Source: Escherichia coli (lineage in GTDB: Bacteria; Pseudomonadota; Gammaproteobacteria; Enterobacterales; Enterobacteriaceae). From it: a DNA stretch of 64,000 nucleotides. The translations under genes and the position numbers were made by a program. Location of the stretch: NCBI RefSeq assembly GCF_022846255.1, contig NZ_AP025682.1, one strand, 5' to 3'. This document shows positions 2,925 to 22,180 of this stretch, one piece after another; the first letter of the stretch is position 1; each line of letters begins with the position of its first letter. The notes under the pieces were generated by a model. It was given only the letters and a program-made list of their open reading frames with translations, ran no database searches and was not told the DNA's origin.

Positions 2925-3398
2925 CTACTCATCCGTACAACCCAGCCCCCGGCGCTGAACCACTTCACTGGCAAACGTAGCTCCGGTTTTTTTCATTATT
3001 CCTTTTTGTATTTTTTGCAGCGCGGGAAATGAGATTCTCCTGCATGAATCCTCTTCCCATATATCACCAGTTACAGGACTAACTGAAAATAGTCCCCACA
3101 CATCTGTCGCTCCGGCGGAAGGAGAATCATAACCTACCCCAAAACTAAAATACCCAGGATGATACAGGTTACCTTTTTTATCTTTCAGAGAACCGTCAAG
3201 AAAAAACCCAGACAATTCCACATTATATTTTTCATTTTTTAGTGAAAAAACCAATAATGCCTGCGCCTGTATTTCAGTAAGACCTGACTGGTTAACAGTC
3301 GTTAGATCAAACCGCGGCACATTCCTGATAAGAATTTCAGCACAACAATTCACGGACACGACCATGAAAAGCAATACTGATATTAATTTACAGGACAT
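2925..3398 (-). CDS. putative periplasmic immunity protein (signal peptide) for the upstream GH73-like protein
   Basis: N-terminal signal-like segment MSCKLISVLLFMVVSVNCCA; overlaps the upstream gene by 16 nt; no recognised domain. Confidence 0.4.
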   Translation of the reverse strand: MSCKLISVLLFMVVSVNCCAEILIRNVPRFDLTTVNQSGLTEIQAQALLVFSLKNEKYNVELSGFFLDGSLKDKKGNLYHPGYFSFGVGYDSPSAGATDVWGLFSVSPVTGDIWEEDSCRRISFPALQKIQKGIMKKTGATFASEVVQRRGLGCTDE

Positions 3399-3853
3399 GT
3401 TATTCTCCGCTTAACCATATTAATCACCCACACTAACTCACTAGCATAACCGGTATGGCCGCCATTACTGTTTTTACCTGAATTAAAACCAGAATCAATC
3501 AATGCCTGCGCAAATTGCTCCGGAGATTTTTTATTTCTGACCGCATTACCAAATCGGATTGCAAAGGACTTTCCGCTAGTTGAAAAAAAGGTATAAGTGG
3601 CAACCCACACTTGATTACTCCCCAGCGGGTGAACCTGTCCTGACTGTAAAGGTGCCGGACCATGCATGGAAAAGTAGTTATTGTATTCTGTCGCGATTCT
3701 ACCCTGCCCGTAAAAGGACTCCTTTGCAGCAAGCCCCAGGATATTTTCCACAGGCACATCAAGTTGCTTAGCGATTAATTCACATTCTTTCAGATATTGC
3801 TGTACAAACCTGACTGCACCAGTGTTATTACAGGCTTTATCATAAGACCCCAT
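3383..3853 (-). CDS. GH73-like (FlgJ-type) N-acetylglucosaminidase-like protein, candidate peptidoglycan-targeting T6SS effector
   Basis: 156 aa, no signal peptide, RBS AAGGAG; motif LGLAAKESFYGQG...YNNYFSMHG resembles the GH73 catalytic region (AQAALESGWG...NNLFGIK) recalled from memory; immediately downstream of tagF. Confidence 0.45.
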   Translation of the reverse strand: MGSYDKACNNTGAVRFVQQYLKECELIAKQLDVPVENILGLAAKESFYGQGRIATEYNNYFSMHGPAPLQSGQVHPLGSNQVWVATYTFFSTSGKSFAIRFGNAVRNKKSPEQFAQALIDSGFNSGKNSNGGHTGYASELVWVINMVKRRITCPVN

Positions 3854-6251: not shown

Positions 6252-9200
6252 TCACAGCGCTCGCTCCGGGCAGGCGAAGCGTTGTAATAGTCCGCGATCC
6301 ACTGGGTCAAAATCCCGTCCGGCGGTGATTTCCAGTATCACCCGCCGCCCGTCAAAGCTGTACTCCACCTGCTGTGTTCCCCGTACCGCCGTTTCTTGCG
6401 CTTTTCCCGCATCCAGCAGGTGAAACAGCGCCCACGGTCCATTAGTCAGCAGCGTCGAGGTGTCCTGGCGGATGCGCGGGCTGGCGGTTATTTCCGCCAT
6501 TGAGCCGTTGCGCGGACCCGGCCAGTTCACTTTCAGCGGCCTGACCGGGCCGTGAGCGTAACGCAGTACCTGGCCGTCAATGTCAATCACCAGTTCGGTG
6601 ATGGCCGGGTCCATATCCACGACGCGGACCTGCATCGCCCATGAGAACTTTTTCCCTCCGTCGCCGTTAAAAAACACGCTGCGGATCTGTTTCGCCTCCT
6701 GAAACGGCGTCAGGTCTGGACCCTGTAAGGTCATGTTGCCTTCGGTCGGTTTGTAGCGCCACGGGTTGCTGGCGGTATCCGCCAGTGGGGCCAGTTGCTT
6801 CGTCCAGAAGGCATCCAGCACGCCGCCGCTGGCAAAGATACGGTTAAAATCGTCCGCGCTGACCTCCTGCGGGCTGTCGGTGAAGGGGTAGCGCCCGTCG
6901 ATGGCGTCGCGGCACTCATCACCGATCACCGCCTCCATCTGCGCGTTCAGCACTTCACCGGTGCCGGCGTTGATTTTTCGCGTTCCCTGCTGCGTGAGAT
7001 CCAGCAGAATATTTTTCAGCGGCGCGGGCAGTTTTGCCGCCTCCAGTTGCAGTTTATCCGCCGCAGAAATGCGCCCCGGCAGAGTGCTCGCAGCCAGCGC
7101 ACTGTCGGCAATGGTGAGCTGGGTGTAGTACTCATTGAGCATCGTCAGCAGCGAATTTAATTGCGGCACGCCGCCGCCCTGCCCGCTGTCCGTCTGCCCG
7201 GAAACCACTTCCCGCAGGGCGGCGAAACGGTCATCCACCAGTGATTTTTCCAGCCGCTCTTCCGGGTGAATGTCCTGCAACAGCTTCGCCGTCTGCACCG
7301 CTTTTCCCGCATTGCCGGAGAGCCGGTCCTGCGCGCGCTGGGCCATCTGCTTTTGTCTGGCCTGCGCATTCAGCGGCGGCACCAGCGTGGTCTGCTCCAC
7401 CACCGCTTTACTCAGGCGCATCAGCGGGGAATCCGGCGAGGCCAGAGTACGCAGCACCTGAAGGTCATACGCTAGTCCAGGGCTACCGTCCTCCCCGGCG
7501 CTGTTGATGCTGTGAATGCTTGCCAGAAAATCCTGCCATCGGCGAGCATATTCAGCCAGGTACAGACGACGTACCTCACGGGTAACCGGGAGTTCCTGCC
7601 CCGGCAACTGGCTCATCACAATATCAGTCGTTTTTTTTTGCGCACTTTCCCGGCCCATCACCCAGGCGTCGTCCGCTGATGCGGCGGCGACAAACTCCGA
7701 CAGCCGTTTGTCGAACAGTTCCCGGTAGCCTTCGCGGGTGAAGATGCCGGGCACGCCCCTGTCCAGCGGCGCGCCATCCGTGCGGACAAAAACTGTTCCC
7801 GCATCCGCGCCCACAGCGCGAACCAGCGAAAACTCCTGCGGTGCTTCGCTCTCCATGGAAGCCAGGGCTCGAGTGTAGATACGCTCAGTGCTGGTATGGC
7901 CGTCAAGGAAGGCCCGCGCCTGGCGGATCAGCCCCTCATCTTTTTCCCAGGGCGAATGCACCACGCGGCTGCCGTCAAACAGGGCGTCAATATGCTCCAG
8001 CACGGCTGCGCGACCGCCAAACTCCGCTACGCTGTCGCGGTTGTCCAGATCGTTCAGCACCCAGGCGTGGATCTCCGCCGCGTTGTATTTGTCCTCGTGG
8101 TCCTTATCGAGGTTCAGCAGCAGATAAACATGCAGGGCGTCATAGGCGGCTTTGCTGTCCTGACGCGCAATCGCATCTGAAAGCACGTATTCCATTCGTT
8201 TCACCAGCGGAGGGAGCAGTAGCTGGTCCAGCAGGCGGTCATACAGGGATGCGACACTCTCCATCACCGGCGGGACGCTGTAAAGACCATAACGCCAGGC
8301 CAGCGGCGGCGAGTCCGGGTCCAGCCCCGGCCAGGCAGAGAGCGCCCGCGCCTGGTTCAGCAGGGCCGGAACAGGCTGCATAGCAGGTTTTCCGGTATAG
8401 GCTTTGACATCACCATCCAGTTGGGTCGTCCGGCTGGCGATTTCATTCAGATAACCGCTGTTACCCTGCTGGCTACCCTGCATTCCCTGCCACAACCAGA
8501 AAGCCAGCGCCAATACCAGCAGATGCCCGCCGGTACGCAGCAGGCGATAACGCCAGGCCCATTGAAGATTCGGCTCCACCAGGTGCGCTTCGCGGAAGAT
8601 AAACTGCGTCAGTAGATCGTGCAGGAAATAGCTGCGGTTGCCGTCCGGCAGGGTATGGGATGGGGAATCCGCCTTCCCTTTGATCGCCCGGACAAAACGC
8701 TGCCAGATGCCCGTCTGATCGGCCACCGCGTCTGCCTGCGCCTGCGCGGCACTGGTGAAAAATACGCCGCGCAGGGTGTTGTTAAGCTGGGTAGCATCAA
8801 ATTTTGAATCGAGGAAAATCTGTTCAATAGCTTCCAGCAGCGGCGCACCCAGCGCGGCAAATTCACGCGGGAAGCGGTAGAGCCGCTGACGGCTTTTAAG
8901 GTCATATTCTTCCTGCAACCGGGTATCCAGCCCCTGATCCAGCCGCTGTGTCAGGTTTGCCAGTTCCCGGCCACAGAGCGCATGCAGCGACTGCGGATCG
9001 CTGGCGTGACGCCTGCGGCTGTAAGGCAGGGTGAAGCCCCAGACCTGGGCTCGCAGGTGACTGGTCAACCCACGGAAATACTCCGTAAAGCCCGGCAGCA
9101 GATCCATCTTGGTGACAACCAGATAGACCGGAAAACGAATGCCCAGCGTCTCCCGCAGTTCCGCCAGCCGCGCACGCAGAGCTGCACAGGCAGCCAGCCG

Positions 9201-15276: not shown

Positions 15277-15729
15277 CTATTTACATGTCACAGATACCGA
15301 TGACTCTCCTGGTACCCGCTGCCCCGGCAAAGAAGATGCCTGGCACTGTGTCGCCAATGCAGGGACCGGTTGTGATAACCAAACCTGTCCATGGTTATAA
15401 ATACAGGAAACCCAGTAACGTTCACTATTCTGATTACTGGCCATTGTGGTATCCCATATTTGCCTGGTTTCACCCTTTATTGTCTCTGTCTCTGGTTTTA
15501 GATCCACCCGATTTTCAGGTTTTCCCTGCGACATCCCTACCCCGTCCAACCACAGACGGGGTTCATAGCGGGAAGATCTCTGCCACGATGCAGATATATC
15601 TGGCTCCAGTACTGTTGTTGAGGATTTTATATTGATAAACACGGGGCAACTGACTTCCCACGCAGTAACAAATTGTGAATAAAACAACATAAAACCCAAC
15701 AACAGAGAAAAAATAAAACGTGTCCCCAT
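15277..15729 (-). CDS. secreted Cys-containing protein, putative immunity protein for the upstream small protein
   Basis: 150 aa with signal-like N-terminus MGTRFIFSLLLGFMLFYSQFVTA; AT-rich; directly downstream (13-nt gap) of a 135-aa cytoplasmic-type ORF. Confidence 0.35.
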   Translation of the reverse strand: MGTRFIFSLLLGFMLFYSQFVTAWEVSCPVFINIKSSTTVLEPDISASWQRSSRYEPRLWLDGVGMSQGKPENRVDLKPETETIKGETRQIWDTTMASNQNSERYWVSCIYNHGQVWLSQPVPALATQCQASSLPGQRVPGESSVSVTCK

Positions 15730-15741
15730 TGAATCTATCCT

Positions 15742-16149
15742 CTACTCAATAATATAAAAAGCTTCCGCATTATTACTGGCATCAGGATATGTTCCATCGC
15801 TGCGCATTCCACCTTTTCGGGAAATAGGGCGTGCAGAGACTTTCGTGGTTTTACCTGTCCACTGGTCCATAACATAAATATACTGACTATCCTGTTCCAG
15901 ATAGAAAGCGGCATGCTTATGCTCATTCTGCCTCGAGGGATACTTTCCGTTAACAAAAGTGGCAATTGCTGTTCCTCTGGGGATCGATTTATCCCCAAAA
16001 ACCTTTCGCCCCTGCTTCCAGGCTCCAGTATTCCCCACATGTGCATATACCTGAACTAAGAACACACATTCCTTTCTGTCTCCTGCCCCCGCCATTCCCA
16101 CCATGTCAGTGCCCTGCAATGAATCTACCAGTCCATAAACATATGCCAT
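15742..16149 (-). CDS. hypothetical small protein, candidate Hcp-dependent effector (possible Cys/His hydrolase)
   Basis: 135 aa, no signal peptide; Cys28 and a His cluster (EHKHAAFY) about 50 residues downstream; sits between tssC and hcp, followed by a signal-peptide ORF. No motif confidently recognised. Confidence 0.3.
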   Translation of the reverse strand: MAYVYGLVDSLQGTDMVGMAGAGDRKECVFLVQVYAHVGNTGAWKQGRKVFGDKSIPRGTAIATFVNGKYPSRQNEHKHAAFYLEQDSQYIYVMDQWTGKTTKVSARPISRKGGMRSDGTYPDASNNAEAFYIIE

Positions 16150-16199: not shown

Positions 16200-17714
16200 T
16201 CAGGCATTACCCTGTTTTACTGACGGCAGTTTTGTCACCAGACGCAGTGATCCTGTTAACCCTTCAAGCTGAAAATGCGGGCGCAGGAAGAATTTGGCGT
16301 CGTAATAGCCCGGATTCCCCTCCACCTCTTCCACCACCACTTCAGCAGCTGCCAGCGGGCGACGAGCTTTGGTTTCCTGTGAGGAGTTCACCGGATCGGC
16401 ATCGACGTAGTTCATGATCCACTCATTGAGCCAGCGCTGCATATCTTCGCGCTCTTTGAACGAGCCGATCTTGTCGCGCACGATACATTTGAGGAAGTGC
16501 GCAAACCGTGAGCAGGCGAAAAGATATGGCAAACGAGCTGAGAGATTGGCGTTGGCCGTAGCATCCGGATCGTAATACTCCTGCGGTTTTTGTAGAGACT
16601 GCGCGCCAATAAAGGCGGCGTAATCAGAGTTTTTGCGGTGGATAAGTGGGATAAAACCATTTTTCGCCAGTTCAGCTTCACGACGGTCAGAGATGGCAAT
16701 TTCTGTCGGGCATTTCATATCCACGCCGCCGTCATCGGTCGGGAAGGTATGACAGGGCAGATTTTCCACCGCGCCACCAGATTCAACACCGCGGATCAAC
16801 GTACACCAACCGTAATGTTTGAAAGAGCGGTTGATATTTACACCCATTGCATAGGCGGCATTGCTCCAGACATATTTGCTGTGATCTGCGCCATCCGCAT
16901 CTTCTTCAAAATCAAACTCATCGACAGGGTTTGTTTTCGCACCATAAGGCAAACGGGAGAGAAAACGTGGCATCGTCAGGCCAATGTAGCGAGAATCCTC
17001 ACTTTTTCGCAGCGAGTTCCACGGTGCGTATTCGAGGTTTTGGGTCACAATTTTGGTCAGATCACGCGGGTTAGCCAGTTCCTGCCAGGAATCCATCTGC
17101 AACACTGATGGAGAGGCCCCAGCAATAAACGGCGCATGGGCTGAGGCTGCCACTTTGGCAATGGAGCCGAGCAGATCCACATCCGGTGGCGTGTGATCAA
17201 AATAATAATCCGCAATAATACAACCGTAAGGTTCTCCGCCTAACTGCCCATATTCGGCTTCATACAGCTTTTTGAACATGGGGCTTTGATCCCACGCGAT
17301 CCCTTTGTAACGCTTCATATTTTTCCGCAATTCATCCTTCGAAAGGTTCATAAAGCGGATTTTTAATTTTTCATCGGTTTCGGTGTTGTAAACCAAATGT
17401 TCCATCCCACGCCAGGAGGACTCCAGTTTCTGAAATTCCGGATGATTCAGGATTAGTTTGATCTGCTCAGTTAATTTGAAATCGATCTGCTCAATAATTG
17501 CAGCAATACTTTTATAAGCATCATCACTAACAGTGATCGTATTTGTCAGAGCCTGTTGGGCCAGCGTCTGAACTGCCGCCTCAACAGCCTTTGCAGCCTG
17601 AGGAGTCTTGGGACGGAAAGCTTTATCCAGCAGCGAATCAAATTCCGTTTCCTGATAGGCAGTGGTTTGCGCAGCAGAGAGGTCGCCAGTCGCCAGAAGA
17701 GTATCGTTTACCAT
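16200..17714 (-). CDS. tssC: T6SS sheath large subunit TssC
   Basis: 504 aa; highly conserved TssC/VipB-like sequence throughout. Confidence 0.9.
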   Translation of the reverse strand: MVNDTLLATGDLSAAQTTAYQETEFDSLLDKAFRPKTPQAAKAVEAAVQTLAQQALTNTITVSDDAYKSIAAIIEQIDFKLTEQIKLILNHPEFQKLESSWRGMEHLVYNTETDEKLKIRFMNLSKDELRKNMKRYKGIAWDQSPMFKKLYEAEYGQLGGEPYGCIIADYYFDHTPPDVDLLGSIAKVAASAHAPFIAGASPSVLQMDSWQELANPRDLTKIVTQNLEYAPWNSLRKSEDSRYIGLTMPRFLSRLPYGAKTNPVDEFDFEEDADGADHSKYVWSNAAYAMGVNINRSFKHYGWCTLIRGVESGGAVENLPCHTFPTDDGGVDMKCPTEIAISDRREAELAKNGFIPLIHRKNSDYAAFIGAQSLQKPQEYYDPDATANANLSARLPYLFACSRFAHFLKCIVRDKIGSFKEREDMQRWLNEWIMNYVDADPVNSSQETKARRPLAAAEVVVEEVEGNPGYYDAKFFLRPHFQLEGLTGSLRLVTKLPSVKQGNA

Positions 17715-17738
17715 GAAAGTTCCTTAATAAAATCGCAG

Positions 17739-18284
17739 TTAGTCTGCTGTTCCCGTTTCACCTGATAAGACACTTTCCTGTTGAGCGACAGGTTTTGGCG
17801 CGCTGGCCAGAGCTTTCAGTAACGTCGGGTCTTGTAATAGTTTGTTGATCAGATTTTCTGCTCCCGCTTTACCATCCATGTAGGTTTGCAGGTTGGCAAG
17901 CTGAGTACGTGCTTCCAGCAGCTGGTTCAGGGCATCCACCTTACGGGCAATCTGCGCAGGCGAGAAATCGTCCATATTCTCCAGCGTGATATCGACCATC
18001 AACTGCCCTTCGCCCGTCAGCGTATTGGGGACAGCAAACGCCACGCGCGGCGCAATGGCTTTCATCCTCTCGTTGAAGTTATCGATATCAATATCAAGGA
18101 ATTTACGATCGGTGACCGGCGGCAGCTCTTCACGCGGTTTACCCGCCAGGTCGGCCAGCACCGCCATGACAAACGGCAGTTCGATTTTTTTCTCGGAGCC
18201 GTAAATCTCAACGTCATACTCAATCTGCACGCGGGGCGCGCGGTTGCGGGCAATAAACTTCTGCGCGCTGTTGTTGATAGCCAT
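17739..18284 (-). CDS. tssB: T6SS sheath small subunit TssB
   Basis: 181 aa; APRVQIEYDVEIYGSEKKIELPFVMAVLADL is the TssB/VipA signature. Confidence 0.9.
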   Translation of the reverse strand: MAINNSAQKFIARNRAPRVQIEYDVEIYGSEKKIELPFVMAVLADLAGKPREELPPVTDRKFLDIDIDNFNERMKAIAPRVAFAVPNTLTGEGQLMVDITLENMDDFSPAQIARKVDALNQLLEARTQLANLQTYMDGKAGAENLINKLLQDPTLLKALASAPKPVAQQESVLSGETGTAD

Positions 18285-18345
18285 AATCCTTCATTTCCTT
18301 ATCAGTGAGCCGACGACCACCAGGGGAGCGGTTCGACGGTACAGT

Positions 18346-18636
18346 TTAAAAATCATACGCAGAGAGTATTTTTATAATCTCTTTGTTTTCTTTGTACTTT
18401 TCCCGCAGCACAGGGAGTGATTTCTTTGCCGGAGGACACCAGGTATCAACCCCCTTTTCGATGTCTCTTTTATCCTTCTCTGGTAAAGAACTGTCCCATT
18501 CACCAGCAAGATGCTGGCACATTTCCGCATTACTCAGAAAATGCTGCACATCCTGTGGTAAAGGCGGTTCCCCCTGAACACAGAAAGCGAAAATCATTAA
18601 CAGGAATGTCAACAACATCGGATAACGAAATGCCAT
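18346..18636 (-). CDS. small secreted protein, putative immunity protein for the upstream M15-like peptidase
   Basis: 96 aa with signal peptide MAFRYPMLLTFLLMIFAFCVQG; starts 2 nt after the stop of the peptidase-like gene. Confidence 0.35.
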   Translation of the reverse strand: MAFRYPMLLTFLLMIFAFCVQGEPPLPQDVQHFLSNAEMCQHLAGEWDSSLPEKDKRDIEKGVDTWCPPAKKSLPVLREKYKENKEIIKILSAYDF

Positions 18637-18638
18637 AC

Positions 18639-19202
18639 TTAATGTCCATCAATTGACCAGTGAGGTATATCTGTATTGCCGCCAACAAATTTTCTGACGC
18701 CGTAACCCAGACCTACCGCCTGAAGCTGGGCATTCATTCCGGTTCGAGGTAGTGTATTAATTGCAACATTCTGACCATTGCTCCCCGCAATTGTTAATGT
18801 TCCGCTCCAACTGATATTCATATCTATCGCAGTACCGCGTGTATGGTTGGAGCTCAGTGCAGGCGCGACATTCAGATTATTCATACCATAGGCCGTAACC
18901 ATAGCCTGCGCCGCTTCAAGCGAGGCTTGCTCAGTCGGGTGAACCCACTCAATATCCACCCCCTCCATCGCCGGGACGTTTTTTGCCTGAACGATTTCAT
19001 GAGCAATCAACCATGACCAGTGCATGAGATATGCTCTGGCGGGAGGGCGATATGTTGCAGAAATACTGACCCTTGCGCGTGCATTACCAAGCGCTCGCAA
19101 AAAATTATCTACCGATGCACGAAAAGTCCCCTGCAAATCATTAGTGGAAGAACTTCCAGGAAAGCGACTGACCCACAGTGCGCCACTTAATTCTTTTGCC
19201 AT
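18639..19202 (-). CDS. M15/LAS-family zinc peptidase-like protein, candidate peptidoglycan peptidase effector
   Basis: 187 aa, no signal peptide; motif SSNHTRGTAIDMN fits the M15 signature S-x-H-x-x-G-x-A-x-D, with a downstream His pair (DIPHWSIDGH); located between clpV and tssB. Confidence 0.45.
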   Translation of the reverse strand: MAKELSGALWVSRFPGSSSTNDLQGTFRASVDNFLRALGNARARVSISATYRPPARAYLMHWSWLIAHEIVQAKNVPAMEGVDIEWVHPTEQASLEAAQAMVTAYGMNNLNVAPALSSNHTRGTAIDMNISWSGTLTIAGSNGQNVAINTLPRTGMNAQLQAVGLGYGVRKFVGGNTDIPHWSIDGH

Positions 19203-19214
19203 AAGGATGCTCCA

Positions 19215-21848
19215 TTAATCCGTGTCAAAAATAATCTGTTCATCCTCATCAACACGAATGCGGATTTGCGTGATGGCCGTTTTCTCTGTCATCGCCTGCA
19301 GCCAATAACGGGACAGTTGTGGGAGGATATGTTGTTCGATATAGCCGATGAGCAAACGAGCGCCGGTTTCGTGCATCGGGCAGCGCGACACAATATGCGT
19401 AATCAGTTCATCGCCATACACCAGTGAAACGCCATGCTGCTCCGCCATCCGATCCATCAATCTGCCAAGATGCAGGCGGGCAATAACACCACGCGCGGTC
19501 TCATCCAGCGGTAAATAAGGAATAACCGTCACACGCCCCAGGAAAGCCGCCGGGAAGTGTTTACGTAACTCCGGCATTAACGCCTCTTTTAACCCTGCCG
19601 AATCGGGCATCAGCGCCGGATCCTCACAGAGCTGGCTGATAAGTTCCGCCCCCGCGTTAGTCGTCAACAACAGCGTGGTATTTTTGAAATCGATGTGGAC
19701 ACCTTCGCCATCTTCCATCGCCCCCTTATCAAACACCTGGAAGAACAGCTCGTGGACGTCGTGATGGGCTTTTTCAATTTCATCCAGCAATACCACGCTC
19801 CAGGGATGGCGGCGTACCGCTTCCGTCAACACGCCGCCTTCGCCATAGCCGACGTAGCCGGGCGGCGCGCCTTTCAGAGTGGAGACTGTGTGAGACTCTT
19901 GATACTCGCTCATGTTGATGGTGATCAGATTCTGTTCACCGCCATAGATTGCTTCTGCCAGTGCCAGCGCGGTCTCAGTCTTGCCTACTCCGGACGGCCC
20001 GGCCAGCAAAAAGACACCCACTGGCTTACGCGGGTCACCTAAACCCGCCCGCGCGGTCTGGATACGCTCGCCAATCTGCGCCAACGCATCCATCTGCCCG
20101 GTAACACGCTGCGCCAAACGGGTGGGCAATTCCAGTATCTGACTGGCTTCATCTTTCACCATCCGTCCGGCGGGAATACCGGTCCAGTCGGAGACAATCT
20201 CTGCCACCACGGTTGCACTGACTTCCGGGTACACGACGGGGTTTTCACCCTGCCAGCCTCTTAATGCCGTTTCTGCCTGTTGTAGAGTGATTTCGTCGCG
20301 CTCGCCAGGCGCTGCGCCGCGTTGCTCCTGTAAACTGCGAACCAACTCCAGTTCCTGCTGCCACCGCGCTTCGGTGTCAGAAAGATCGGCATTAAGCGAT
20401 ATAATCCGCGCCGTCAGTACATCGCCCCGCTCCGAGCGGATACCCATTTTTTCCTGCTTTAATAACAACTCCTGCTCCAGTTCGGCAGCGTTGAGCTGCT
20501 GGCGCAGATACTGGACTCTCGCAGGCGGGGTATGCAGCGACAGCGCTACACGGGCCGCCGCCGTATCCAGCAGGCTGATGGCCTTATCCGGTAGTTGCCG
20601 GGCCGGAATGTAACGGTGAGAAAGCTGTACAGCGGCGCGCACGGCCTCATCAAGAATCAGGACATCATGGTGTTCTTCAAGCGTGGTGACTAATCCGCGC
20701 ACCATCTCAACAGCCGCAACCTCTTCCGGCTCAGCAACCTGCAATACCTGAAAACGCCGGGTCAGCGCCGGATCCTTTTCGATATGGCGTTTGTACTCGC
20801 TCCAGGTGGTTGCGCCGATGGTGCGCAGAGTGCCACGCGCCAGCGCCGGTTTCAGCAGGTTGGCAGCATCCCCCGTACCGGATGTACCACCAGCGCCCAC
20901 CAGGGTGTGAACTTCATCAACAAAAAGTATCACCGGCTGCGCCGAGCGCGCGGCCTCTTCCAGCAAAGCTTTCAGGCGGGATTCAAATTCACCCTTCATG
21001 GACGCCCCAGCCAGCAGCGCTCCAACATCCAGTGACAGCAACCGCACGTTACGCAGTGAAGGCGGCACTTCCCCCCCGGCAATCGCCAGCGCGAATCCTT
21101 CCACCACTGCCGTTTTCCCGACCCCCGCCTCGCCGGTCAGCAGCGGATTGTTCTGGCGACGGCGCAGCAGAATATCCGTCATAGTACGGATCTCGTGTTC
21201 GCGTCCGGTGACCGGATCGATATTGCCTTCACGGGCCAGCGCAGTCATGTCCTGGCAGTATTTCGCCAGCGCGGATTTACTTCCGGTTGATTCGCCGGCA
21301 AAGACCTGGCTAGCTTCCCCCGGTACTGCAAAATTTAAATCCGAGCCGTCATAAGGTATTTCTGTTAATTCAGGAGATGAAGCGATTAAAGACGGAAGAA
21401 TATCTAATAGTTCATCTACCGGTAGCCCTGCCAATGGCGCACAGATATTTTTTAACACCCGATACAATTCTGGCGTGGTTAACCAGGCAAGTAATAACCA
21501 TCCACTACGAATTTTTTGATCACCAAAGCGGATACTTGCCAACATCCAGGCTTTTTCAACAGAAAGATCGATATGATGGGAAAAATCGTTAATTACACTC
21601 GCTCCGGCAGGCAATATATTCAATTGCTGAATTAACGCCTTCTCAACATCAGCAGATGTTATTTGATAATGTCGAAGCACATTGTGAATGTCATTCTCTG
21701 GTTGTTGTATTAACTGATGCAACCAATGCGTCAGTTCGACATAAGGATTAGCGCGTAATTTACAGAACGTCGTCGCAGATTCCAAAGATCTAAACAAAGA
21801 TTTGGTTAGCTTTCCATACAGTGCACTGCGCGAAACAGGAGTGTCCAT
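19215..21848 (-). CDS. clpV: ClpV (TssH) AAA+ ATPase
   Basis: 877 aa; two Walker A motifs (GEAGVGKTA, GPSGVGKTE); ClpB-like without middle-domain extension. Confidence 0.9.
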   Translation of the reverse strand: MDTPVSRSALYGKLTKSLFRSLESATTFCKLRANPYVELTHWLHQLIQQPENDIHNVLRHYQITSADVEKALIQQLNILPAGASVINDFSHHIDLSVEKAWMLASIRFGDQKIRSGWLLLAWLTTPELYRVLKNICAPLAGLPVDELLDILPSLIASSPELTEIPYDGSDLNFAVPGEASQVFAGESTGSKSALAKYCQDMTALAREGNIDPVTGREHEIRTMTDILLRRRQNNPLLTGEAGVGKTAVVEGFALAIAGGEVPPSLRNVRLLSLDVGALLAGASMKGEFESRLKALLEEAARSAQPVILFVDEVHTLVGAGGTSGTGDAANLLKPALARGTLRTIGATTWSEYKRHIEKDPALTRRFQVLQVAEPEEVAAVEMVRGLVTTLEEHHDVLILDEAVRAAVQLSHRYIPARQLPDKAISLLDTAAARVALSLHTPPARVQYLRQQLNAAELEQELLLKQEKMGIRSERGDVLTARIISLNADLSDTEARWQQELELVRSLQEQRGAAPGERDEITLQQAETALRGWQGENPVVYPEVSATVVAEIVSDWTGIPAGRMVKDEASQILELPTRLAQRVTGQMDALAQIGERIQTARAGLGDPRKPVGVFLLAGPSGVGKTETALALAEAIYGGEQNLITINMSEYQESHTVSTLKGAPPGYVGYGEGGVLTEAVRRHPWSVVLLDEIEKAHHDVHELFFQVFDKGAMEDGEGVHIDFKNTTLLLTTNAGAELISQLCEDPALMPDSAGLKEALMPELRKHFPAAFLGRVTVIPYLPLDETARGVIARLHLGRLMDRMAEQHGVSLVYGDELITHIVSRCPMHETGARLLIGYIEQHILPQLSRYWLQAMTEKTAITQIRIRVDEDEQIIFDTD

Positions 21849-22180
21849 CTGTTACACCTAATGATGTAAGAACATATAAATGATACATAAACATAACTGT
21901 ACCGATTAAAACTTCTAATTAATAGAATTATCAAAAAGGCCGAATGAAACAATGATGCATATCACAGAACACAATGTAATATAGCAGGTAGTATCTTTTT
22001 CATGGTGATATTCAATAGAGCAAGCCAATTTCATACATACAATGAATATATTAAATTAAAAATCGCCACTATATATTTCCGCGAAAACTTATATTGATAA
22101 AGTAAATTGATCAGCATTGCTTATCTAAAAATTTAGAAAACTTATTCTTTTGAAATAAACATTCTACACAGTGATACACA

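Follow-up and report, generated by a model that had tools for sequence, protein, structure and literature searches.

What two small genes lodged between clpV and tssB contribute to a type VI secretion system (T6SS) is the question raised by a 64,000-nucleotide stretch of Escherichia coli DNA (contig NZ_AP025682.1, assembly GCF_022846255.1; hereafter the window). The first of them encodes a protein of 187 amino acids (aa; WP_042102250.1) at 18639-19202 on the minus strand, and the second, encoding 96 aa (WP_042102251.1), follows on the same strand at 18346-18636 after 2 nucleotides (nt; 18637-18638). Coordinates, strand, lengths and spacing agree with an initial annotation of the locus, which had predicted an M15/LAS-type peptidase effector with periplasmic immunity. 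RefSeq labels both genes "hypothetical protein", a near-identical allele being called "peptidoglycan-binding domain-containing protein". We consider them, with a probability of roughly 0.8, to be an antibacterial T6SS effector-immunity pair, in which the 187-aa protein would be a highly divergent LAS/MEROPS M15 zinc peptidase hitting peptidoglycan stem peptides and the 96-aa partner its antidote. This reading, and with it most of the earlier prediction, draws on the computed fold, the conservation of the motifs, the genomic linkage to PAAR and T6SS genes and to the partner, and the behaviour of the partner gene where the effector has been lost. A search of 1.84 billion representatives returned 926 relatives of the 187-aa protein (E<=1e-3) and the two-gene unit was kept in 30 of 80 species, so that the pair was judged to lie beyond chance.

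The AlphaFold2 (AF2) model of the effector reached a predicted local distance difference test score (pLDDT) of 97.3 and a predicted template modelling score (pTM) of 0.88, and it has the Hedgehog/DD-peptidase alpha/beta fold found in VanX, VanY, Ply500, MepA and the N-domain of Shh. When the model was searched with Foldseek, the top 20 matches were all M15 enzymes (Ply500 at E 9e-5, ChiX at rank 15), and its structural neighbours comprised only M15/LAS zinc peptidases (Ply500, VanY, LysB4, LdcB, VanX); Ply500, VanY and LysB4 ranked above VanX, and VanY and LdcB scored equally well.

Residues 117-129 of the effector, SSNHTRGTAIDMN, fit the signature S-x-H-x-x-G-x-A-x-D, as the initial annotation had pointed out; the codons from S118 to D127 lie at 18822-18851 (-) and encode the first two predicted zinc ligands, H120 and D127 (codon GAT, 18822-18824, -). 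Loss of the metal-ligand motif from homologues would have spoken against an M15-type enzyme, and it was not observed: in an alignment of 84 diverse homologues the invariant residues include H120, D127, D178, H181 and S183, while R52, P53, R56, H61, H88 and W182 are at least 90% conserved. The register H120-x6-D127 followed by D178-x-x-H181 corresponds to the zinc-ligand pattern H-x(3-6)-D plus [D/E]-x-x-H. Of the C-terminal histidine pair that had been proposed, H181 is thus upheld as invariant, whereas H187 varies among H, R, A, G and T and is not conserved as a ligand; in the D178-I-P-H181 segment (18660-18671, -), D178 is the predicted catalytic base and H181 the predicted third zinc ligand. 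Alignment with hhalign to a canonical VanY-like domain, which in protein P0133 is fused N-terminally to an effector-type domain, placed H120 and D127 on the H and D of "HLSGLAVD" and D178-x-x-H181-W on E-P-W-H-W; this alignment to a single VanY-like sequence is weak (E 0.026, probability 1.9%) and informs on residue correspondence only. A further conserved block, "SATYRPPERAYLMHW", whose codons R52-P53-P-A-R56 are at 19035-19049 (-), may resemble the S-x-Y-R motif of VanY-type enzymes, and "SGYRSLAEQQAIW" stands in parallel to it in the VanY-like N-domain of P0133.

The two proteins differ in their targeting, as read from their N-termini and in line with what had been annotated. The effector begins with the hydrophilic MAKELSGALWVSRFPGSSS, without a hydrophobic stretch, and no hydrophobic segment was found in all its 187 aa; the partner begins with MAFRYPMLLTFLLMIFAFCVQG|EPP, a typical Sec signal (residues 1-22), after which about 74 aa remain as the mature, three-helix form. 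An effector devoid of Sec or Tat signal is therefore adjacent to a putative immunity protein targeted to the compartment in which the toxin would act. Initially the partner was retrieved only from Escherichia, Salmonella and Citrobacter; in Pectobacterium, Intestinirhabdus and Herbaspirillum the gene after the peptidase homologue proved clearly related to it, and a profile search collected 133 clusters from Enterobacterales and Betaproteobacteria, with no Pfam domain. The conservation of the unit was assessed in a scan of one genome per species, in which 211 relatives were found and the best 80 loci kept. Hidden Markov models (HMMs) or phmmer seeds representing PAAR, the two proteins of the pair and 12 T6SS core proteins of the window (the vgrG seed was mis-located) were run on the open reading frames (ORFs) of these loci. 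The partner family directly followed the peptidase gene in the 30 species mentioned above, and its members carry a signal peptide or, in relatives, a lipobox. In other clades of the enzyme, signal-peptide proteins without relation to the partner, of at least two kinds (about 189 aa; about 170-180 aa), take its place, a pattern typical of polymorphic immunity.

Across 31 pairs the only invariant residues of the partner are C40 and C67 (codons 18517-18519 and 18436-18438, spanning 18436-18519, -), which presumably form a periplasmic disulfide, and G45-E46 (18499-18504, -) are at least 90% conserved. The partner diverges faster than the effector, with a mean pairwise identity of 32% vs. 52%, and the two co-vary (Mantel r 0.64, 0 of 2000 permutations), a correlation to which shared phylogeny contributes. 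Co-diversification, together with the orphan retention described below, marks the immunity protein as cognate and separable. A single-chain AF2 model, in which the effector was fused to the mature partner by a (GGGGS)5 linker and for which the 31 paired sequences were used, gave a pTM of 0.84 as compared to 0.88 for the effector alone, with linker pLDDT below 50 and the three helices of the partner at 92-96; as an indirect indicator, the model suggests that the two proteins may form a defined complex. A thioredoxin-like nature of the partner (StoA/ResA, NCBIfam E 1e-6) was discarded as spurious, the match scoring 28.5 bits against a cutoff of 210, its "WCPPA" lacking a second cysteine and being unconserved, and the mature protein being too short for a thioredoxin fold. 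H42 was likewise rejected as a zinc binder, since it varies among H, Y, S, T and R in the wider family, in which G45 and E46 are near-invariant instead. In an uncultured Erwinia metagenome-assembled genome (locus L022, 7998-8855) effector and partner were seen as one 285-aa ORF matched by both HMMs, probably through an assembly or sequencing error that erased the stop codon.

Where the effector has been lost, the partner can persist. In the tssH-tssB gap of Salmonella enterica (loci L003/L004, 5900-5998) a 32-codon ORF, MPKELSGAQWV|YGVTKFVGGNTDKPHWSIDGH, precedes an intact 96-aa gene; compared with the full-length Salmonella-type protein P0003, it retains residues 1-11 and, fused to them in frame, residues 167-187, and the deletion of aa 12-166 leaves no catalytic residue. 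In E. coli GF4-3 and others (L005, 1501-1704) an in-frame deletion of aa 64-183 has produced a remnant of 67 aa (aa 1-63 plus 184-187), whose junction ...LMHWS|IDGH joins two HWS motifs, and again the partner is intact. The Salmonella and E. coli deletions are independent, and the persistence of the partner despite loss of the catalytic core is taken as the most telling evidence for its role in immunity. In E. coli XJ5.2 (L006, 1501-2470) IS1A and a partial IS256 transposase were observed after the 67-aa remnant, in place of the partner and tssB; there the cluster is broken at the remnant.

Of 5426 complete E. coli genomes, 116 carry the pair, with the effector at full length in 107, and a tssH-tssB junction of this type occurs in 118, so that essentially all such clusters have it. 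Codon 127 (18822-18824 in the window, 479-481 in locus L007), typed with allele-specific 45-mers in the 107 full-length copies, is GAT (Asp127) in 17, including the window, and AAT (Asn127) in 90 (84%), genomes that may represent few lineages. The copy in the window, with Asp127 and every other conserved residue intact, is predicted to be active. Because Asn replaces an invariant Asp in 84% of the full-length copies, most E. coli effectors may be hypomorphic or dead, although the N127 ORFs are otherwise full-length and show no further damage.

The genomic surroundings of the relatives connect the family to the T6SS through core, Hcp or PAAR genes. In Escherichia and Salmonella both genes sit inside the tssH-tssB operon. 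In about 19-22 of the 80 species, among them Ralstonia, Pseudomonas, Collimonas, Massilia, Rubrivivax and Dechloromonas, the gene directly preceding that of the peptidase encodes PAAR; Hcp is nearby at two loci and core genes are found at the Escherichia locus; individual loci of Ralstonia and Herbaspirillum have the order PAAR, effector, small ORF, and in Rhodanobacter the effector-type domain is fused to PAAR. Whatever the length of the protein, from about 180 to 5317 aa, the domain always forms its very C-terminal end, and in multidomain relatives from other phyla (379-5317 aa) it is accompanied by SLT, pesticin-type lysozyme, PGRP amidase, GH19, M15B, M23 and PG_binding_1 domains. The PAAR-linked homologues share a conserved 24-aa N-terminal leader (M-A-T-x-Q-A-T-L-T-P-T-x-D-x-T-P-A-V-V), which is absent from the enterobacterial forms and suggests a different, tip-bound loading route. 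At six loci (L029, L031, L048, L059, L077 and L092, near locus position 7940-8000) the coding sequence of the leader was seen to overlap the 3' end of the upstream PAAR gene in another frame, typically by 58 nt; the overlapped C-terminal tail of PAAR (...APYYGDxxSDxxSxxGSDxCxC) is conserved, and both frames look conserved across genera. Paenibacillus homologues (L061, L064, L066-L068, L072, L074, L080, L084) have a Sec signal peptide (MKKLLISAMVTLTLMAPTNIFA...) and neither a partner-family gene nor PAAR at their loci, and are apparently ordinary secreted wall hydrolases.

Zinc binding, the substrate and its bond, the loading route and inhibition by direct binding are the parts of the mechanism that we infer. 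The analogy drawn on is that with LAS enzymes and with effectors of the Tae and Tlde1 types. One zinc ion would be held by H120, D127 and H181, with D178 as general base. Synthesised in the cytoplasm and lacking a signal peptide, the effector would leave the cell only via the T6SS, probably loaded in the Hcp lumen in E. coli, a route proposed because the protein is of about 20 kDa and has no leader, and as PAAR-tip cargo in relatives among the beta- and gamma-proteobacteria. Once in the periplasm of a Gram-negative neighbour it would hydrolyze peptidoglycan stem peptides and weaken the wall, while the partner, exported by the Sec route and folded as a disulfide-stabilised three-helix protein in the periplasm of the producer, would bind and block enzyme arriving from sister cells. 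As to the bond, for which the preferences are rough estimates, an L-Ala-D-Glu endopeptidase is the leading candidate, at somewhat below even odds, since Ply500 and LysB4 are top structural neighbours and the domain partners are endolysin-like; a DD- or LD-carboxypeptidase would be a less likely option, entertained because VanY and LdcB score equally well, and a DD-endopeptidase less likely again.

Several observations weigh against the effector-immunity interpretation. The Peptidase_M15 HMM search recommended in the initial annotation did not bear out its expectation: the best of the three Pfam matches of the effector, Peptidase_M15_4 (PF13539), had an i-E of 0.12 over 16 residues and is not significant, and the remaining two, K1-lyase_N and Caudo_bapla_RBP, were dismissed as noise. 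Among NCBIfam models the best was DdpX with 14.3 bits (cutoff 176), phmmer found no match among PDB sequences, a profile of the 84 sequences run with hmmsearch against the PDB recovered only chance matches to Ubp8 (E ~1), and PHROGs returned none. Neither Pfam (PF13539, PF02557, PF01427 and similar) nor NCBIfam thus has a curated M15 model that the protein matches significantly. Of the 84 relatives, 8 match Pfam VanY weakly (E<=0.1), which speaks for the M15 relationship, and only 2 do so at E<=1e-3. The family is nevertheless large and well conserved, with 405 clusters in a 90%-identity database, none of which has a Pfam domain. With the M15 HMM matches being insignificant, the relationship is visible only at the level of fold and motif: fold and active-site pattern are M15/LAS, and no curated M15 sequence family can be shown to include the protein. 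The literature searched held no secretion, toxicity or muropeptide data for the effector family. Furthermore, the weapon may be decaying in E. coli, and T6SS delivery in the window strain itself is doubtful because the vgrG of its cluster is broken: the gene starts at 1468 (-), has only a 106-codon ORF (1148-1468) and is frameshifted, with a 1-nt deletion in a G-run at about codon 101 as compared to strain 2014C-3338, and its similarity to vgrG stops after about 420 nt. Next to the broken gene lies that of an ISAs1-family transposase (91-918).

Three other explanations were confronted with these data. An M15 hydrolase inside a T6SS cluster could open the wall of the producer for assembly of its own machine, with the partner as regulator, as in the case of TagX, a T6SS-cluster enzyme of the M15/VanY superfamily essential for Hcp secretion (PMC5061870), and of TagY of S. 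fredii, proposed to act alike (PMC11872809); the position of the 187-aa gene between two core genes and the fact that its only Pfam lead, PF13539, is the family of TagX would fit such an accessory function. TagX, however, has two transmembrane helices that bring its peptidase domain into the periplasm, and the 187-aa protein, having neither a transmembrane segment or N-terminal membrane anchor nor a signal peptide, cannot reach its own wall. Nor is it conserved in and required by all clusters: the locus is found in 18 of 60 SPI-6 clusters, many clusters of Salmonella and some of E. coli have lost the catalytic core, and homologues occur far from T6SS core genes, beside PAAR or alone with the partner. 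Polymorphic partner families and toxin-like C-terminal architectures fit an effector, and we regard an accessory role as very improbable. Equally little credence is given to a cytoplasmic D-Ala-D-Ala dipeptidase resembling VanX/DdpX (M15D), either with a housekeeping function or as a toxin depleting the precursor dipeptide in the cytoplasm of the prey. DdpX is the best NCBIfam match, but its score stays far below the equivalog cutoff, and VanX, itself a structural neighbour, ranks behind Ply500, VanY and LysB4; the partner, with its signal peptide or lipobox and invariant cysteine pair, points to the periplasm as the site of toxicity, homologues from Gram-positive bacteria have Sec signals, and in multidomain homologues the domain is paired with extracytoplasmic wall hydrolases.

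The decay of the locus deserves more weight, and it is conceivable, if improbable, that in E. coli the enzyme is no longer a weapon and that the locus is kept only for immunity against toxin-firing relatives. Asn at the invariant position 127 in 90 of the 107 full-length copies, the independent in-frame deletions with intact partner and the disrupted vgrG of the window strain would all be explained by such a relic. The window allele, nonetheless, retains Asp127 and all conserved residues and is predicted to be active, so that decay may describe the species rather than this allele; residual function is possible in the otherwise undamaged N127 proteins, the 90 genomes carrying them may stem from few lineages, and the equivalence of D127 to D287 of TagX is not established, D287N not being mappable with certainty. 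A broader picture, to which we would give somewhat less than an even chance, is that of a Pfam-invisible clade of LAS-peptidase toxins with its own new family of disulfide-bonded three-helix immunity proteins, disarmed in enterics while the antidote was kept, and with a second mode of loading through the leader that overlaps PAAR; the disarming is suggested by the change of Asp127 to Asn, by the independent core deletions and by the recognition of the published Salmonella "effector" as a remnant.

The arrangement of the locus is in keeping with expression together with the core genes. The upstream flank is tssH/clpV (19215-21848, -; stop codon 19215-19217), separated by 12 nt from the effector ORF, whose ATG is preceded at 7 nt by a GGAG ribosome-binding site (19210-19213, -; read from sequence) directly after the tssH stop; 61 nt separate the 96-aa ORF from tssB (17739-18284, -), which is followed by tssC. 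Between tssH and tssB no promoter or terminator signal exceeded those of shuffled sequences, which fits co-transcription of the pair with the core genes. The GC content of the pair (about 46-51% vs. 54-62% in the flanks) makes it only slightly more AT-rich and was judged uninformative. Positions 17700-21900 are 100% identical to several complete E. coli genomes, e.g., strain 2014C-3338, whose RefSeq annotation gives the same gene order within an SPI-6-like T6SS island beside tRNA-Asp/dnaQ. The island also holds pairs of the BPSL0067-family (Tae2-like)/STY0301, Tlde1 and Tae4/Tai-like types, and such modules are therefore the norm there. In the window itself, the interval between tssC and hcp (15277-16149, -) encodes a member of the BPSL0067 family (135 aa, E 8e-50) and a signal-peptide protein of the STY0301 family (150 aa), which are the Tae2/Tai2-type pair of variable region VR1. 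Downstream of tagF, in a stretch that differs from strain 2014C-3338, two ORFs of about 156 aa were noticed (2925-3853, -), one of which (3383-3853, -) weakly matches FlgJ-type glucosaminidases (E 6e-4); they may be a Tge2/Tgi2-like pair.

Effector-immunity pairs of the T6SS that target peptidoglycan are well known, and the concept is not new. SPI-6-type systems have stem-peptide effectors that are papain-like (Tae) or YkuD-like (Tlde1); the present pair would add a zinc LAS/M15 family, invisible to domain libraries, and it defines a matching new immunity family and, with tssH-tssB, a fourth variable slot in SPI-6-like clusters. The natural D127N allele and the series of deletions offer material on the loss of an effector whose immunity is retained, and if Asn127 truly inactivates the enzyme, most carriers keep a dud weapon and a shield inside a core T6SS operon. 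Should the bond indeed be L-Ala-D-Glu, enterobacterial T6SS effectors would gain their first example of this specificity, a point made for Salmonella by Blondel et al. (PMC10469887).

Comparison with TagX of Acinetobacter, an L-Ala-D-Glu endopeptidase, shows that both are zinc peptidases of the M15/VanY superfamily encoded inside a T6SS cluster, with Ply500 as nearest solved structure; TagX is membrane-anchored, unsecreted, essential and without immunity partner, whereas the 187-aa protein is soluble, dispensable, polymorphic and accompanied by a periplasmic partner. The phage and bacterial L-Ala-D-Glu endopeptidases of MEROPS M15C (Ply500 2VO9, LysB4 6AKV, T5 Lys 8P3A, ChiX 5OPZ) share with it only 12-15% identity and template modelling scores of 0.3-0.45, and the effector, invisible to Pfam M15 models, is about 50 residues longer, including an N-terminal helical segment. 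VanY, LdcB and VanXY (M15B) serve resistance or housekeeping and lack an immunity partner, and their sequence relation to the effector is below family thresholds. Closer in organization are Tae2/Tai2, Tae4/Tai4 and Tlde1/Tldi1 of the same island, each a small leaderless cargo directed at peptidoglycan stem peptides and followed by a signal-peptide immunity gene; Tae proteins are nevertheless papain-like amidases and Tlde1 has a YkuD-like L,D-transpeptidase fold, unlike the predicted zinc LAS peptidase, and these pairs sit in VR1 and VR2, the variable regions that follow tssC and tssM, rather than between tssH and tssB. M15-type domains have been predicted as T6SS payloads in WHIX effectors (PMC12135965) and, linked to VgrG, in Neisseria (PMC10210955), but those are recognizable by Pfam/CDD, while the 187-aa family is a separate clade with no Pfam domain and an immunity family of its own.

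The literature searched contained no experimental study of the effector family, and a 2026 census of Salmonella effectors (PMC12994826), a structural-bioinformatics pipeline (PMC11148199) and a survey of E. coli T6SS (PMC12282107) made no mention of it under the terms searched. The nearest precedent is the unannotated 32-aa ORF between tssH and tssB that Blondel et al. (2023; PMC10469887) proposed in silico to be a new effector, a candidate L-Ala-D-Glu endopeptidase similar to ChiX and followed by a signal-peptide immunity protein, and found in 18 of 60 Salmonella genomes, and that Amaya et al. (2024; PMC11669294) counted across serovars. The two modules share the tssH-tssB locus, the partner family (the 96-aa proteins are 81% identical) and the predicted function; they differ in that the published 32-aa effector is a remnant of a catalytic-core deletion, while the protein is full-length in E. 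coli and in a Salmonella-type cluster. The published Salmonella effector call is thereby corrected, and serovar counts of the 32-aa ORF are counts of orphan immunity. The locus and the functional idea are hence already in print (Blondel et al., 2023), and what is new is the full-length protein and its family, the assignment at the level of fold, the immunity family, the linkage to PAAR, the recognition of the Salmonella remnant and the D127N polymorphism.

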